This document shows, piece by piece, positions 33,897 to 62,236 of a stretch of 64,000 nucleotides of DNA. The DNA is taken from IMG/VR virus record IMGVR_UViG_3300049846_002130, positions 119,529 through 183,528 of that record. One strand, written 5' to 3'. A program made the position numbers and the translations under genes. The stretch's first letter is position 1. Every line of letters begins with the position of its first letter. This DNA is from a virus. The notes under the pieces were generated by a model, which saw only the letters and a program-made list of their open reading frames with translations, did not search any database and was not told the DNA's origin.

Positions 33897-34628
33897 TTAA
33901 AATGGTATTAAGGGATCAATAGTAATAGATTTAAACTTCTCTAATATAATCCTTGCTGGTTCTTGGTTATGAGCAACGATACATTCTGAGAAGACAAACA
34001 GCCTTGTCAGCTCATCTATCGTAGGAAGGTTTTGACAATTAATTACTTTGTTTCCTATTACAATTTGAATGTTTTGCCCTTTACGAGAAATTGAGTAAGC
34101 TTTGTTATTAAGCTGTCCAGTTACTGATTTAAACGATTCATATTCTTTAACTGAAATAATAGTATGCTCATACTTGGTTTCTGGTTGATCATATGGATCT
34201 ATAGACTTTCCATAAGCTTGTAATTCTTTTATTATTGCTTCTACGTCTACTGGAAAATCAAAGCAAAGCCTAAAATCTTTTGCATCTAATGCAAGCCACC
34301 TATTATCTTCCCAGTCATTCCACAAGAAAAGAATCATTCCTGTTTCTTGATCAATAATTCTAATATCTATTTCAGACATAACTATATTAAACTTCTTACC
34401 ATAAATATCAATTATTTTTACATAAGAAAAGGGATCTTCTGCTGAGCCTGTTTCATCAATCCAAAAGCCAGGTAATGGCTTAATAATACTAGGAGTTGGT
34501 AGTGAAAGAGTTATAAGACTAGCTAAACCTAATATAGACAAAAGAGCAAAAGAGTTTTTTGTACTATTAGTTTTAGTTAAAGACTTTGCTTTACTTTTTG
34601 GTTTAATCTTGTTTTTAGCTCTTTGCAT
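33897..34628 (-). CDS. hypothetical protein, Lys-rich N-terminus plus TM anchor
   Basis: start reset to MQRAK (GGAG RBS) because the longer ORF overlaps tRNA-Ser. Confidence 0.6.
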   Translation of the reverse strand: MQRAKNKIKPKSKAKSLTKTNSTKNSFALLSILGLASLITLSLPTPSIIKPLPGFWIDETGSAEDPFSYVKIIDIYGKKFNIVMSEIDIRIIDQETGMILFLWNDWEDNRWLALDAKDFRLCFDFPVDVEAIIKELQAYGKSIDPYDQPETKYEHTIISVKEYESFKSVTGQLNNKAYSISRKGQNIQIVIGNKVINCQNLPTIDELTRLFVFSECIVAHNQEPARIILEKFKSITIDPLIPF

Positions 34629-34645
34629 TATTTCTCCAATAAAAG

Positions 34646-34735
34646 CGGAAGGCTGAGGACTCGAACCCCATACGGCTTTACCCGTACCCAAGCTTTCAAG
34701 GCTTGTCGCCGCCCATCGCAGCTGCTTAACCTTCC
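34646..34735 (-). tRNA. tRNA-Ser(TGA)
   Basis: GGAAGGT/GCCTTCC, G73, loop CTTGAAA, long variable arm. Confidence 0.85.
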
Positions 34736-34740
34736 AATAT

Positions 34741-34826
34741 TAGACCTAATAGGACTCGAACCCCCGGAAGTTATTAACTTCAGTGCTTTTCAAGAGCACC
34801 ATCTTAAACCACTTGATCACAATCCC
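34741..34826 (-). tRNA. chimeric/pseudo tRNA-Ser(TGA)-like gene with a foreign 3' end
   Basis: D, anticodon and variable arms intact, but acceptor GGGATTG vs TAGGTCT and T-stem GGGGG vs CCTAT pair poorly. Confidence 0.65.
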
Positions 34827-34831
34827 AGTTA

Positions 34832-35209
34832 TTAACAAATATTATCGGGTAATGAAATTATATTAGCATGCAATTTCATGTGACAGTTTGCGCATAAGCA
34901 AATACACTTAGCCAATTCAGCTTTAAGCTTTAAAGCTGAATAGCTTCCCTTGGCATTACCGATATTAAAATCTTTTTCGTTTGGATCTAGATGATGAGCA
35001 ACTAAACAAACGAATTCTTTTTCTGGACAGAGATTGCATCCGTTGGACTTAAAGTCATTAATTATAAGTTTGTTTCGAATAGCATATTTTTCTCTATTTT
35101 TGTTATTACGAATTTTCATTTTTTGATTATATATAGAATCAGTATGATATCTATTATTATAGTATTCTCTATTATATTCTTTCCGCTTTTCTTTATCTTT
35201 ACTAGGCAT
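34832..35209 (-). CDS. HNH endonuclease-like protein
   Basis: CxxC...HHLDP..KDF...ELAKC..LCANCH. Confidence 0.8.
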   Translation of the reverse strand: MPSKDKEKRKEYNREYYNNRYHTDSIYNQKMKIRNNKNREKYAIRNKLIINDFKSNGCNLCPEKEFVCLVAHHLDPNEKDFNIGNAKGSYSALKLKAELAKCICLCANCHMKLHANIISLPDNIC

Positions 35210-35278
35210 AAAAACTCCTAGTAAAGATTGTATAGAAGACTTAATTTTAAGTCAAGAATATCAAACTATAAGTCTAAG

Positions 35279-35352
35279 TGAGAGAGCAGGGATTTGAACC
35301 TTGGACCACTTGCTTAACAGGCACAATGCTCTACCACCTGAGCTATAGGTCT
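35279..35352 (-). tRNA. chimeric/pseudo tRNA-Asn(GTT)-like gene with a foreign 3' end
   Basis: D-arm and loop CTGTTAA present; acceptor AGACCTA vs CTCTCTC does not pair. Confidence 0.65.
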
Positions 35353-35355
35353 ATG

Positions 35356-35429
35356 CGGGCCCTCCTGGACTTGAACCAGGGTATCGCAGCTTAACAGGCT
35401 GCTGCCTTTACCGACTTGGCGAAGGGCCC
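35356..35429 (-). tRNA. tRNA-Asn(GTT)
   Basis: fully paired cloverleaf GGGCCCT/AGGGCCC, G73. Confidence 0.9.
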
Positions 35430-37549
35430 TCTAGTTTAGTACTAAACTTTAATTTTTCTTGATCTCTAGTTACATAGATTATGTCATTGGCTACATATAT
35501 ACCACCTATGACTTCATTAGATAGTGGATCAAGTAAGTAGTTATTAATTGCTCGCTTTAGTGGACGTCCACCAAAAGCAGGGTCATAACCTTTATCAACA
35601 AGTAGTTCCTTAGCTTCAGGAGTTATTATTAGCTTAAGTTCTTTATCTGCTAATTGTTTTTGTACTTTATGTAAGTGAATATCTAGTATCTTACTTATAT
35701 CGGATTTAGTAAGTGGATCAAATATTACTTTACTATCGATTCTATTTAGAATCTCAGGCTTAATAGCTTTAAGTAATTCAGCTTCAACAGCAGCTGTAGC
35801 TTTTTCTCTGTTACCTGCAGCTTCAAATATTTTTACAGAGCCAATATTTGAAGTCATGATGATAACAGTATTCTTAAAGTCTACGCTCCGGCCACGACTA
35901 TCAGTTAGCCTGCCTTCATCTAATAGTTGTAAGAAAACATTAAAGACATCTGGGTGCGCCTTCTCTATTTCATCAAATAGAACCACAGAGTATGGTCTAC
36001 GCAATACTGCCTCAGTTAGCTGGCCACCTTCATCATGACCAGCATAACCTGGAGGTGAACCTAGTAATCTACTAACAGTATGCTTTTCCATATACTCTGA
36101 CATATCGATACGAACAATGGCGTTCTCATCATCAAATAAGAACTCAGCCAAAGCCTTTGCTAGCTCAGTCTTGCCAACACCAGTCGGTCCTAAAAACAAG
36201 AAACTACCTGTCGGCCGGTTAGCATCTTGAAGGCCAGCACGGGCTCGTCGGACAGCCTTAGATAAGGCCACAATGGCTTCGTGTTGCCCAATAACTCGTT
36301 TATGGAGATTATCTTCCATATGCAAAAGCTTCTGAGATTCGCTTTGCTTTAGTTTGTTAACCTTGATGCCTGTCCACTGACCAATAACCTTTGCTATGTC
36401 GTCATAGGAAAGAGCATCCGAAAGAAGTGGTTTCTCACCTTGAACATTAGCTAGATTATTGTTTAGATTCAATAATGTTTGTTCAGCTTCAATCAGAGTA
36501 CTATATCTAATCTTGCTGGCTTGTTCATAATCACCATTAGTTTCAGACTCTTCGGCAATAAGAAAAAGTTCTTCTATGAGTTCTTTTTGAGAAGCAATCT
36601 CATCCAAGATAGTTCTCTCTTGAGACCACTGAAGCTTTAGGTTTGCAAGATCATCTTCTTTTGTTCTAAGCAAGGCTTTAAGCTTATTGTAAGCAGTTAC
36701 ATTACGATCACTTCTTATAGCTACTTCATTAACCCTAAGAGATATAACTTCTCTTTCTAGTAAATCAATCTCATGAGGCTTACTTTCAGATGTAGTCTTT
36801 AATAAGCTACAAGCTTCATCAAGTAAGTCAATAGCTTTATCTGGAAGATTTCGTTCAGTTAAGTACCTGTTGCTTAAAGTAGCTGCAGCTATTAAAGCAG
36901 AATCATTAATCTGAATACCATGATAGGTTTCGAACTTCTCTTTTAGGCCTCGTAGGATTTGCAGGGTTACATCAACACTTGGAGCATTAATAAATACTGC
37001 CTGGAATCTACGATCTAATGTTTTATTCTTTTCGAAGGTCTTCTTATATTCATCAATACTAGTTGTACCAATCACCCTAAGGTTGCTTCTAGATAGACTA
37101 TCCTCAAGCATACTGCTTGCATCAACTCCACCCTCAGACTTACCAGCACCAACAATATTATGAATATTATCTAGAAAAAGAATTAAGTCATCGCTCCTAG
37201 ATTCTAATTCTCTAAGAAGTTTAAGTAGTCGTTCTTCGAATTCACCTCTATAACTAGCCCCAGCTAGAAGACTAGCTATATCTAGGGATAGAATTTTTTT
37301 ATTCTTTAGATATTCTGGGACATCCTCAACTACAATTCTTTGAGCAAGGCCATAAACTATAGTGGTCTTACCTACACCAGAAGCTCCTATTAAAATAGGA
37401 TTATTCTTAGATCTACGAGTAAGAATCTGAATAACTCTTCGAATCTCTTCATCTCTACCAATTGTGGGATCAAGTAAATCTTCTTCAGCTAAAGCTGTAA
37501 TATTCTTACAGTAGCGAGCAACAATATCTTCCTTAGCTGACTTGGTCAT
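35408..37549 (-). CDS. clpB: ClpB-like AAA+ disaggregase lacking the N-terminal domain
   Basis: LDP.IGRDEEIRR, two NBDs, coiled-coil middle domain, GPTGVGKTE, DEIEKAH; start reset to MTKSAK because the longer ORF overlaps tRNA-Ser. Confidence 0.9.
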   Translation of the reverse strand: MTKSAKEDIVARYCKNITALAEEDLLDPTIGRDEEIRRVIQILTRRSKNNPILIGASGVGKTTIVYGLAQRIVVEDVPEYLKNKKILSLDIASLLAGASYRGEFEERLLKLLRELESRSDDLILFLDNIHNIVGAGKSEGGVDASSMLEDSLSRSNLRVIGTTSIDEYKKTFEKNKTLDRRFQAVFINAPSVDVTLQILRGLKEKFETYHGIQINDSALIAAATLSNRYLTERNLPDKAIDLLDEACSLLKTTSESKPHEIDLLEREVISLRVNEVAIRSDRNVTAYNKLKALLRTKEDDLANLKLQWSQERTILDEIASQKELIEELFLIAEESETNGDYEQASKIRYSTLIEAEQTLLNLNNNLANVQGEKPLLSDALSYDDIAKVIGQWTGIKVNKLKQSESQKLLHMEDNLHKRVIGQHEAIVALSKAVRRARAGLQDANRPTGSFLFLGPTGVGKTELAKALAEFLFDDENAIVRIDMSEYMEKHTVSRLLGSPPGYAGHDEGGQLTEAVLRRPYSVVLFDEIEKAHPDVFNVFLQLLDEGRLTDSRGRSVDFKNTVIIMTSNIGSVKIFEAAGNREKATAAVEAELLKAIKPEILNRIDSKVIFDPLTKSDISKILDIHLHKVQKQLADKELKLIITPEAKELLVDKGYDPAFGGRPLKRAINNYLLDPLSNEVIGGIYVANDIIYVTRDQEKLKFSTKLEGPSPSR

Positions 37550-37581
37550 ATGCACTCCAATCAATATAAGCTTATTATAAA

Positions 37582-37665
37582 CGGAGCCGGCAGGATTCGA
37601 ACCTACGATAGTGTTACTATGGTTGTTTAGCAAACAACTGGTTTAAGCCACTCACCCACAGCTCC
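37582..37665 (-). tRNA. tRNA-Ser(GCT)
   Basis: cloverleaf with loop TTGCTAA and long variable arm, G73. Confidence 0.9.
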
Positions 37666-60685: not shown

Positions 60686-60717
60686 TGGTGGGCACGGAGA
60701 GATTCTAACCCCTAACC
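60686..60717 (-). pseudogene. isolated tRNA 3' fragment (T-arm, acceptor strand, ACCA)
   Basis: GGTT AGGGG TTAGAAT CTCTC CGTGCCC A CCA. Confidence 0.6.
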
Positions 60718-60762
60718 ATACAAGTAGTTGAAAATAACTAATTAATTAAGTTAGAATTAGAG

Positions 60763-60836
60763 TGAGAACGACAGGACTCGAACCTGTATAATCCACTTAC
60801 GGTACTTTGATTAGAAGGCAAAGCCGATACGTTCCC
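60763..60836 (-). tRNA. D-armless tRNA-Arg(TCT)-like RNA
   Basis: GGGAACG/CGTTCTC, loop CTTCTAA, T-arm ACAGG TTCGAGT CCTGT; only TATCGG in place of the D-arm. Confidence 0.6.
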
Positions 60837-60845
60837 AGGAGTCTT

Positions 60846-61463
60846 ATGAATTGTTTAAACTGTAATAAGGAAACAACAAATCCTAAATATTGTAGCAAAT
60901 CTTGTTCTGCTAAGATAAACGGAAAGCTATTTCCTAAACGCAAACTTAAAAACTTATGTAGTCGTTGTAAGAATATTAGAGATACTTATACCTCATCCCT
61001 ATGTAAGAGTTGTAGAGCTCAAGGTATTCATATTGGAAATCCAAAAGGAAATTCTAATATTTCTATTGAGCGGCTGAAAAGTATTTCGGTTAATGAAACA
61101 ACTAAAAAATGCCCAAGCTGTAAAGAAATATTGCCGCTTATGCAATTTTATATTCGTCGAGGATTTCGAACTCATTCTTACTGCCGAACATGTGTTTTAA
61201 AACAAACTTCAGATCGGCAAAAGAACTTTAAACTAATGTGCGTTGAATACAAAGGTGGGAAATGTATTTTTTGTGGATATAATCGATGTGTCCAAGCTAT
61301 GGACTTTCATCATTTAGATCCATCTCAAAAAGATTTCGCAGTTTCACAAAGAAAGTCTTTAGCATTTACAGATGTAGTAAGAGCTGAACTAGATAAATGT
61401 GCTTTACTATGTGCTACTTGTCATCGAGAAGTACATGCGGGAGTAATAACTCTTATGCCTTAG
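60846..61463 (+). CDS. HNH endonuclease with N-terminal Zn-finger repeats
   Basis: CxxC repeats; KGGKC..CGY...DFHHLDP..KDF...ELDKC.LLCATCHREVH; start reset to ATG 60846. Confidence 0.85.
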   Translation: MNCLNCNKETTNPKYCSKSCSAKINGKLFPKRKLKNLCSRCKNIRDTYTSSLCKSCRAQGIHIGNPKGNSNISIERLKSISVNETTKKCPSCKEILPLMQFYIRRGFRTHSYCRTCVLKQTSDRQKNFKLMCVEYKGGKCIFCGYNRCVQAMDFHHLDPSQKDFAVSQRKSLAFTDVVRAELDKCALLCATCHREVHAGVITLMP

Positions 61464-61474
61464 GCTACGCGCCC
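61456..61474 (-). pseudogene. isolated tRNA 5' fragment (GGGCGCG TA GCCTAAGGCA)
   Basis: acceptor strand complementary to the fragment at 60686. Confidence 0.55.
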
Positions 61475-62159: not shown

Positions 62160-62236
62160 TGGTGGGCCCTCGGTGATTTGAACACCGGCCTTCATGCTTA
62201 TGAGGCACGCACTCTAACCAACTGAGTTAAGGGCCC
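62160..62236 (-). tRNA. tRNA-CAT, probably Ile2 (lysidine) type, CCA encoded
   Basis: GGGCCCT TA ACTC..., loop CTCATAA, A73; resembles bacterial tRNA-Ile2 rather than initiator. Confidence 0.85.

Follow-up and report, generated by a model that had tools for sequence, protein, structure and literature searches.

Arrangement of the locus

The subject of this analysis is a short block of transfer RNA (tRNA) genes in an uncultured phage of 183 kb, in which two tRNA genes, here called Asn' and Ser', lie on either side of a gene for an HNH endonuclease, and the 3' acceptor strand of the first stands at the end of the second. The window, by which we mean the whole stretch of 64,000 nucleotides (nt) that was analysed, is the final 64 kb (positions 119,529 to 183,528) of the 183,528-bp IMG/VR virus record IMGVR_UViG_3300049846_002130, which is classed with direct terminal repeats. 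The G+C content of the window is about 36% and the genome is AT-rich.

All of the tRNA and HNH features belong to the minus strand, on which they follow a ClpB-like AAA+ gene; Table 1 gives them in the order in which they are read. An apparently complete tRNA-Asn(GTT) and tRNA-Ser(TGA) flank the hybrid unit at a distance of 3-5 nt and have the same two anticodons as the hybrids. The spacers are CAT between tRNA-Asn and Asn', and ATAT after the TAGGTCT-A that ends Ser' (34826-34741). The open reading frame (ORF) of the HNH gene has about 74 nt of the insert before it, with a spacer of 69 nt between CTCTCTC-A and the ORF, and 83 nt after it, most of which is the body of Ser' (78 nt) with 5 nt between the ORF and Ser'.

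Table 1. Coordinates of the features of the locus, in reading order on the minus strand
Feature	Coordinates	Strand	Basis or remark
tRNA-Asn(GTT), intact, canonical	35356..35429	-	ARAGORN; Rfam RF00005, 62.4 bits, full length
Asn', positions 1-65	35287..35352	-	Rfam local match, model positions 8-63, 29.2 bits
CTCTCTC-A	35279..35286	-	Occupies the slot of the Asn' 3' acceptor strand and discriminator
Promoter-like site TTGACT-17 nt-TACAAT	35227..35255	-	Consensus match, before the HNH gene
Perfect 12-bp hairpin ATCTTTACTAGG / CCTAGTAAAGAT	35195..35228	-	Inverted repeat, folding
HNH endonuclease gene, 125 amino acids (aa), intact	34832..35209	-	PHROGs and invariant residues
Ser', 5' acceptor strand through T stem	34749..34826	-	ARAGORN; Rfam 30.3 bits
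TAGGTCT-A, displaced Asn' 3' acceptor strand and discriminator	34741..34748	-	7/7 pairing; ARAGORN when joined
tRNA-Ser(TGA), non-canonical fold	34645..34735	-	ARAGORN; best Rfam match tRNA-Sec

The locus is correctly assembled. The exact HNH protein is present on three further contigs (Logan SRR35532381, JGI 3300043395 and Logan SRR35181285), which agree with the window at every position (100% identity) over 4830, 3806 and 1127 bp respectively, in each case including the whole 861-bp locus, and the longest repeat inside the locus is only 14 nt. Ser' and the flanking tRNA-Ser have 14 nt of the T arm in common. Misassembly between tRNA repeats, which the preliminary description of this DNA named as something that could overturn its account, is thus excluded. 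As the four copies are identical, no analysis of covariation or selection is possible.

Asn' and its displaced acceptor strand

Asn' has the 5' acceptor strand AGACCTA (35352-35346), a normal D arm, an anticodon arm with GTT and the T arm CAAGG-TTCAAAT-CCCTG (35303-35287). The strand that follows this T arm, CTCTCTC (35286-35280), pairs with AGACCTA at only one of the seven positions. The perfect partner is TAGGTCT (34748-34742), 538 nt downstream, which forms 7/7 Watson-Crick pairs with AGACCTA and is in exact register, with the T arm of Ser' immediately ahead of it and a discriminator A behind. The preliminary description had noted both the failure to pair and a perfect partner about 540 nt away at the end of Ser', and was right on both points.

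As background we used the acceptor stems of 135 tRNAs of phage loci, of which 111 are distinct, and among these 111 a perfect 7/7 match between non-cognate strands was found in 4 of 12,202 ordered pairs. ARAGORN does not call Asn' as it stands; with TAGGTCTA attached, whether behind position 65 or within the T loop, it calls a tRNA-Asn(GTT). Because the 7/7 partner is in tRNA register and the joined sequence is called, Asn' is a complete gene interrupted by about 538 nt, with one acceptor strand demonstrably displaced. No Asn' base has been lost at the interruption, and the break is at the boundary between T arm and acceptor stem.

Perfect cross-matches also arise by common descent. The intact tRNA-Asn(GTT) (35356-35429) and the tRNA-Met(CAT) (62160-62236, minus strand) of this phage have an identical acceptor stem, GGGCCCT/AGGGCCC, which hints at module exchange between tRNA genes. 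The 7/7 match of Asn' signals a shared origin of its two pieces.

Over the tRNA body Asn' is 86% identical to a Rhizobium-phage tRNA-Asn, with one extra G that is bulged from the anticodon stem. Its T stem carries an A-C mismatch, and its discriminator is A, where the intact tRNA-Asn of this phage and the other phage tRNA-Asn genes compared have G. The sequence of the intact tRNA-Asn is very different from that of Asn'. The CTCTCTC-A now attached to Asn' would have come from a donor tRNA as its 3' tail, or may be no more than the start of the insert; a 20-mer ending in it had no match in IMG/VR.

Ser' and the pairing proposed for it

Ser' (anticodon TGA) begins with GGGATTG and has a 3-bp D stem, a perfect anticodon stem, a perfect 6-bp variable arm and a weak T stem, GGGGG/CCTAT. 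Its Rfam score of 30.3 bits is to be compared with a gathering score of 29. With its own downstream TAGGTCT it makes 6/7 acceptor pairs, four of them G-U and only two Watson-Crick (2/7), with one A-G mismatch, and the T stem has 2/5 Watson-Crick pairs, two G-U pairs and one G-A mismatch. The gene is flawless up to the T loop and poor beyond it, which is the pattern that a junction in the T arm predicts. Its discriminator is A, as against G in the flanking tRNA-Ser. The cloverleaf is not the minimum-energy fold and its energy is no better than that of shuffled sequences (z = -0.14), and minimum-energy folding of both hybrids was uninformative.

It had been proposed that the swap was reciprocal, with GGGATTG of Ser' pairing with the orphan CTCTCTC at 5/7 positions. 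The count is correct, one of the five pairs being G-U and the other two positions mismatched. However the 5/7 level is attained by 15% of the non-cognate pairs in the 111-stem set; for GGGATTG the share of real 3' strands that attain it is 25%, and for CTCTCTC the share of real 5' strands is 31%. The helix is thus at chance level, and the data do not show a swap that is reciprocal. Ser' is called by ARAGORN whichever of the three configurations is tried (cis and both trans versions), and the T stems do not discriminate the cis from the trans configuration.

The flanking tRNA genes

The flanking tRNA genes had both been described as intact. This holds for tRNA-Asn, which is canonical. A tRNA-Ser is indeed present at 34735-34645, but its fold is not canonical: in the minimum-energy fold (-37.5 kcal/mol) the acceptor stem is of 8 bp, the T stem of 4 bp and the D stem of 5 bp with a loop of 5 nt, and the acceptor stem is separated from the D stem by 5 nt. 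The Rfam family that it matches best is tRNA-Sec, with 36.3 bits, which does not reach the gathering score of 47, yet its anticodon is UGA (Ser). We take it to resemble the 8/4 type known as 'allo-tRNA'.

On the other side of the unit the ClpB-like ORF (35408-37633) has no stop of its own before the tRNA cluster. It enters tRNA-Asn by 22 nt (35408-35429, minus strand) and its stop is a TAA in the D loop of that gene, and there is thus no spacer between the coding sequence and the tRNA block.

The HNH endonuclease gene

The ORF between the tRNA pieces encodes, as had been proposed, an HNH endonuclease. Its 125-aa product matches the PHROGs HNH endonuclease families phrog_2255 (E 1e-21) and phrog_3106 (E 1e-20), and it has each of the 15 residues that do not vary among 14 homologues, including C58, C61, H72, H73, C106, N108, C109, H110 and H114. 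A Pfam search with the ORF gave no family at E 0.01. The ORF is free-standing, with its own Shine-Dalgarno sequence and ATG, and the gene is intact and looks alive.

There are two further homologues in this phage. One is an HNH protein encoded at 60846-61463 of the same window, with whose C-terminal part the present protein shares 32% identity (E 6e-16) and whose gene sits in a second broken tRNA gene (locus 60686-61474). A third and weaker homologue, near the genome start and outside the window (G000:C1:7850-8600), is on the opposite strand and adjoins a tRNA-Leu(TAA). All three HNH homologues of the phage thus adjoin tRNA genes or the wrecks of such genes. Past the third there is a tRNA-like sequence, GGGGAG ... 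GGTGG-TTCAAGC-CCACA-CTCCC, which has a long insertion and is not called by ARAGORN.

The putative control region of the gene is of a form known from other homing endonucleases. TTGACT-17-TACAAT (35255-35227) is a 10/12 sigma-70-like match, which is joint best, being one of four such in the region, and a match to consensus only; of the four it alone lies a short way before the start codon of the HNH gene. Around the Shine-Dalgarno sequence and ATG there is a perfect inverted repeat of 12 bp (35228-35217 / 35206-35195), the 5' arm of which begins inside the -10 hexamer. The hairpin is worth -16 kcal/mol (z = -3.6), and an RNA beginning at 35221, near the expected start of the candidate promoter, gives -5.1 kcal/mol. 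In their review Edgell, Gibb and Belfort (PMC2988022) describe this arrangement of promoter and ribosome-binding site (RBS) hairpin for I-TevI, I-TevII, I-TevIII, segB and Aeh1 mobE: the RBS is hidden in read-through transcripts, and transcription from the endonuclease's own promoter begins within the hairpin. As the geometry is the same, it suggests that the HNH protein may be translated solely from its own promoter, by analogy with I-TevI, segB and mobE.

Relatives of the HNH gene in phage tRNA clusters

The HNH gene belongs to a family that lives free-standing in the tRNA clusters of unrelated phages. The closest homologues, at 44-53% identity (53%, 47% and a 75-aa fragment), are within tRNA clusters of phage-like contigs and in the same sense as the tRNA genes, and the homologues on Logan contigs L090-L092 are likewise among tRNA genes. 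A profile-guided scan of IMG/VR for the family gave 80 loci, 63 of them non-identical. There are tRNA genes within 1.2 kb in 47 of the 80, and each of these tRNA genes is on the HNH strand. A downstream tRNA gene is present in 29 of the 63 distinct loci, and in 17 of these 29 it starts no more than 15 nt from the HNH stop or overlaps it.

The HNH stop codon is, in nine loci at least, the T8-A9-G10 of the next tRNA itself, as in ...TAG CTCAG..., and the last two or three codons are therefore the 5' acceptor strand of that tRNA. The loci are L091:3378-3387, L104, L113, L117, L118, L142, L144, L166 and L167. This habit of the family is a small observation, at the level of annotation, for which we found no earlier description. 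At the end of the HNH gene studied here the frame reads TGT TAA TAA CTG GGA TTG TGA, with the in-frame TGA, behind two stops, at Ser' positions 8-10. This agreement in phase, which has a 1-in-3 chance of arising, is a weak hint that the HNH gene and the front of Ser' may be an old unit.

Upstream of the gene, in the relatives, a tRNA ends 19-170 nt before the HNH match, and the 69-nt spacer seen here fits that range if CTCTCTC-A is a tRNA tail. The relatives have a different tRNA on each side of the HNH gene, and the flanking tRNAs are complete genes, although these are ARAGORN calls only and would miss fragments.

We also used a script that looks for a split signature, that is a 5' acceptor strand which does not pair with its partner in cis but pairs perfectly with one that follows a T arm further on. 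The Asn' locus is the sole case in its genome, and in 86 other loci, 83 of them with this HNH family, there was one match, which is probably due to chance.

Three individual loci may be mentioned. At L090:1220-1964 the 53%-identity homologue has a tRNA-Met(CAT) gene on each side and shares the interval with a 60-aa ORF, so that tRNAs of the same anticodon stand on both sides of the HNH gene, parallel to the window. At L085:7214-7846 a 5' tRNA fragment, GGCGGAGTTAGCTCAGCGGTAGAGC, adjoins a reverse-strand ORF in a phage tRNA cluster, and no matching 3' fragment was seen there. At L098:1495-1600, in a 147-kb phage, a tRNA-like sequence ending ...GGGGGTTCGAATCCCTCCAGACCCACCA is directly past the HNH stop and is not called by ARAGORN.

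Comparison with known endonucleases of tRNA clusters

The endonucleases of the phage T5 tRNA cluster are also of the HNH family. They are encoded inside the tRNA gene cluster (2004 study, cited in PMC2330249), as is the endonuclease here, and in the account of T5 given in PMC2330249 no split or hybrid tRNA is reported.

SegB of phage T4 is a homing endonuclease encoded in a tRNA cluster, and the conserved core of its site, GGTTCRANTCC, is the T-arm motif; SegB transfers itself plus neighbouring tRNA genes (Brok-Volchanskaya et al., PMC2330249). Chihara et al. (PMC13096335) mapped SegB cuts inside tRNA genes, with the motif RAWTSGAAC, and found that SegB drives recombination-dependent rearrangement of tRNA-plus-endonuclease units. 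By our own reading of the letters RAWTSGAAC, taken on the opposite strand, gives the T-loop consensus GTTCSAWTY.

The present locus is like that of SegB in T4 and T6 in having a selfish endonuclease gene among phage tRNA genes, with its own promoter and an RBS-hiding hairpin. However SegB is a GIY-YIG enzyme and the enzyme here is a predicted HNH endonuclease, and here there are in-register hybrid tRNA genes on both sides, none being described in PMC2330249, PMC13096335 or PMC2988022. The HNH gene at 60846-61463 is homologous; at the present locus the enclosed tRNA is a Ser hybrid, and so differs in identity from the broken Asn gene, and there are intact substitutes outside the halves.

Origin of the locus

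We consider it likely that the locus is the scar of an HNH homing-endonuclease module that was copied into a redundant tRNA-Asn gene by recombination in the T arm. The starting point would be a phage that had two complete tRNA-Asn(GTT) genes, the second of which, Asn', stood between the tRNA-Asn and tRNA-Ser of today. Asn' would then have been broken within or next to its T-arm region, and the DNA repaired from a donor carrying a tRNA X, a spacer with the promoter, the HNH gene and a tRNA-Ser'. Such a donor is expected to have X ending ...CCCTGCTCTCTCA, followed by the HNH gene and then a Ser' ending CAATCCC. Donor and recipient tRNAs of different identity would share only the universal T-arm motif GGTTCRANTCC, so that both crossovers would have fallen there and in register. 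The tract copied would run from the T arm of X (leaving perhaps CCCTG, and CTCTCTC-A) through the promoter, RBS hairpin and HNH gene to the T arm of Ser'. The outcome would be Asn' (1 to about 65) with the tail of X, the HNH gene, and Ser' (1 to about 65) with the tail of Asn'.

Crossovers in the T arm lead one to expect that no Asn' base is missing, that both hybrids are of tRNA length, and that Ser' is flawless and then poor, and CTCTCTC need pair with nothing. Both hybrid tRNAs are most likely non-functional, to judge from their predicted structures, and dead hybrids would be tolerated because intact tRNA-Asn(GTT) and tRNA-Ser(TGA) genes are adjacent. Insertion of an HNH-plus-tRNA cassette into the T arm of tRNA-Asn was one of two readings offered in the preliminary description, and the junctions, the habits of the HNH family and the precedent of SegB all fit it; the empty-site allele that it looked for was not found.

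Several points weigh against this origin. A crossover in the T loop leaves the ancestral Asn' T stem with 3/5 pairs, and a junction at 65/66 gives a T stem with 4/5 but no homology that would explain the register; the junctions can be located only approximately, and clean ancestral tRNAs result from neither placement. Cleavage by the HNH enzyme at the T arm is assumed by analogy with SegB, which is from a different nuclease family, GIY-YIG. The hybrids' loss of function is deduced from structure only, and other odd tRNAs of this phage may work. Neither an empty-site allele nor a donor with X, HNH and Ser' was found.

The search for an empty-site allele, or for any diverged relative of the phage, used neighbouring proteins and DNA patterns and found none, so that we infer the insertion and its direction and have not witnessed them. 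For the ClpB-like neighbour the best matches in IMG/VR were at 42-51% identity, none with the Asn/Ser cluster, and among 5.8 billion proteins the identity was at most 58%, to bacterial ClpB. A 200-kb phage with a ClpB likewise lacking the N domain is not syntenic. No relative was found for the 244-aa downstream neighbour. The pattern of the Asn' acceptor stem and the start of its D stem matched only tRNA-Ile and tRNA-Arg genes of other phages. The tail GTTCAAATCCCTGCTCTCTC and a Ser' 5' 18-mer had no match in IMG/VR, and an Asn' body 32-mer and a 27-mer of the odd tRNA-Ser had none in JGI metagenomes. The tRNAs of the phage have a G+C content of 42 to 63%, and native and foreign tRNAs are not separable by this measure.

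One segment of the genome outside the window, G000:C1:5000-20000, has 50-58% G+C compared with 34-42% elsewhere, and could be a foreign island or DNA of mixed origin.

Alternative explanations

A single reciprocal crossover, T loop to T loop, between Asn' and a circular or tandem unit of Ser' plus HNH would make CTCTCTC-A the true 3' end of Ser'. The topology is that expected of one reciprocal exchange, the acceptor and T stems of Ser' have 7 Watson-Crick pairs in trans against 4 in cis, and SegB-type events make tandem tRNA-plus-endonuclease repeats from which such a unit could loop out (PMC13096335). However GGGATTG/CTCTCTC is at chance level and GGGGG/CCCTG is mismatched as well, ARAGORN does not prefer the trans version, the insert has no integrase or recombinase, and the relatives bear a different tRNA on each side of the HNH gene and not a circular unit. 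We regard such an exchange as unlikely.

It is quite improbable that Ser'(TGA) with its borrowed TAGGTCT-A is a working tRNA with a G-U-rich acceptor stem, only Asn' being dead. The four G-U pairs and A-G mismatch of the acceptor stem, the two G-U pairs and G-A mismatch of the T stem, a cloverleaf that is no minimum-energy fold, the discriminator A in place of G and an intact tRNA of the same anticodon 5 nt away are all against it. On the other side, Ser' is called by both ARAGORN and Rfam, its variable, anticodon and D arms are all perfect, it is directly downstream of the HNH gene as tRNAs are in the relatives, and this phage tolerates unorthodox tRNAs.

Split tRNA genes are known from Nanoarchaeum equitans and permuted tRNA genes from Cyanidioschyzon merolae. 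The breaks in these are at the anticodon or other loops, with bulge-helix-bulge motifs that are cut by the archaeal or eukaryal splicing endonuclease, and the genes are conserved and the sole copy of an essential tRNA. The second reading of the preliminary description was of this kind: an outer split tRNA-Asn and an inner permuted tRNA-Ser, processed and ligated. In this or a domain-swapped version two tRNA-length RNAs, the body of Asn' with its foreign tail and that of Ser' with the tail of Asn', would be cut out and would pair by their swapped acceptor strands, or be re-joined by a phage RNA ligase, to give working or decoy tRNAs, as a bacterial-virus counterpart of the archaeal and algal genes. 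There is a superficial likeness, in that the tRNA parts are apart in the DNA with a 3' piece upstream of a 5' piece, the long-range acceptor helix is perfect, and an RNA ligase gene (PF09414) is 3 kb upstream. However such RNA ligases are common in tRNA-bearing phages as repair enzymes, and the gene is thus not specific evidence for splicing. The break here is at the boundary of T arm and acceptor stem, the host is a bacterium, no bulge-helix-bulge motif can be seen, and next to the unit there are intact genes for both anticodons, so that a split copy is not needed. In 34000-36000 no intron family, be it group I (Intron_gpI) or group II, was found at E <= 1, nor any other RNA family in the insert. 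The ends of the insert are not shaped like the 5' or 3' ends of tRNAs, and RNase P and RNase Z would therefore not be expected to cut at 65/66. Pairing in the reciprocal helix does not exceed chance, Asn' has the further defects of bulged G, A-C mismatch and discriminator A, the pattern does not recur beyond the one probable chance match, and the four identical copies offer no variation for a test of selection. We find a functional design of either form very hard to credit, and this part of the preliminary description is unsupported.

An artefact, be it misassembly across tRNA repeats or a chance 7-mer match, is next to impossible: tRNA genes do have short motifs in common, but a repeat of 14 nt would not confuse an assembler, contigs of three further samples are identical, and the 7/7 match is in exact tRNA register.

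Four other candidates were rejected. A group I intron with an endonuclease ORF does not agree with the lack of a ribozyme match or with a break at the boundary of T arm and acceptor stem and not in the anticodon loop. An integrase-borne T-loop element is not supported, as the 538-nt insert encodes only the 125-aa HNH protein and the target tRNA is not restored. The 7-bp terminal inverted repeats of a supposed transposon are the two strands of a tRNA acceptor stem, in register. In a tandem duplication the right-hand hybrid should be followed by a second copy of spacer plus HNH, and it is followed by tRNA-Ser.

Significance for phage tRNA clusters

We suggest that the locus be seen as an unusually clean fossil of the remodelling of phage tRNA clusters by homing endonucleases. 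It is a tidy case of a known process and not a new way of making tRNAs, and there is no new mechanism of tRNA biogenesis in it unless RNA data show joined products. The absence of any loss from Asn' and the position of both junctions, in tRNA register at the one motif common to all tRNA genes, suggest that when an endonuclease gene is fused to a tRNA's front part, any other tRNA gene can serve as its landing site. The by-products of such remodelling would be expected to include hybrid and duplicated tRNA genes, and this is relevant both to the turnover of phage tRNA sets and to the weak extra tRNA calls that are found beside HNH genes.

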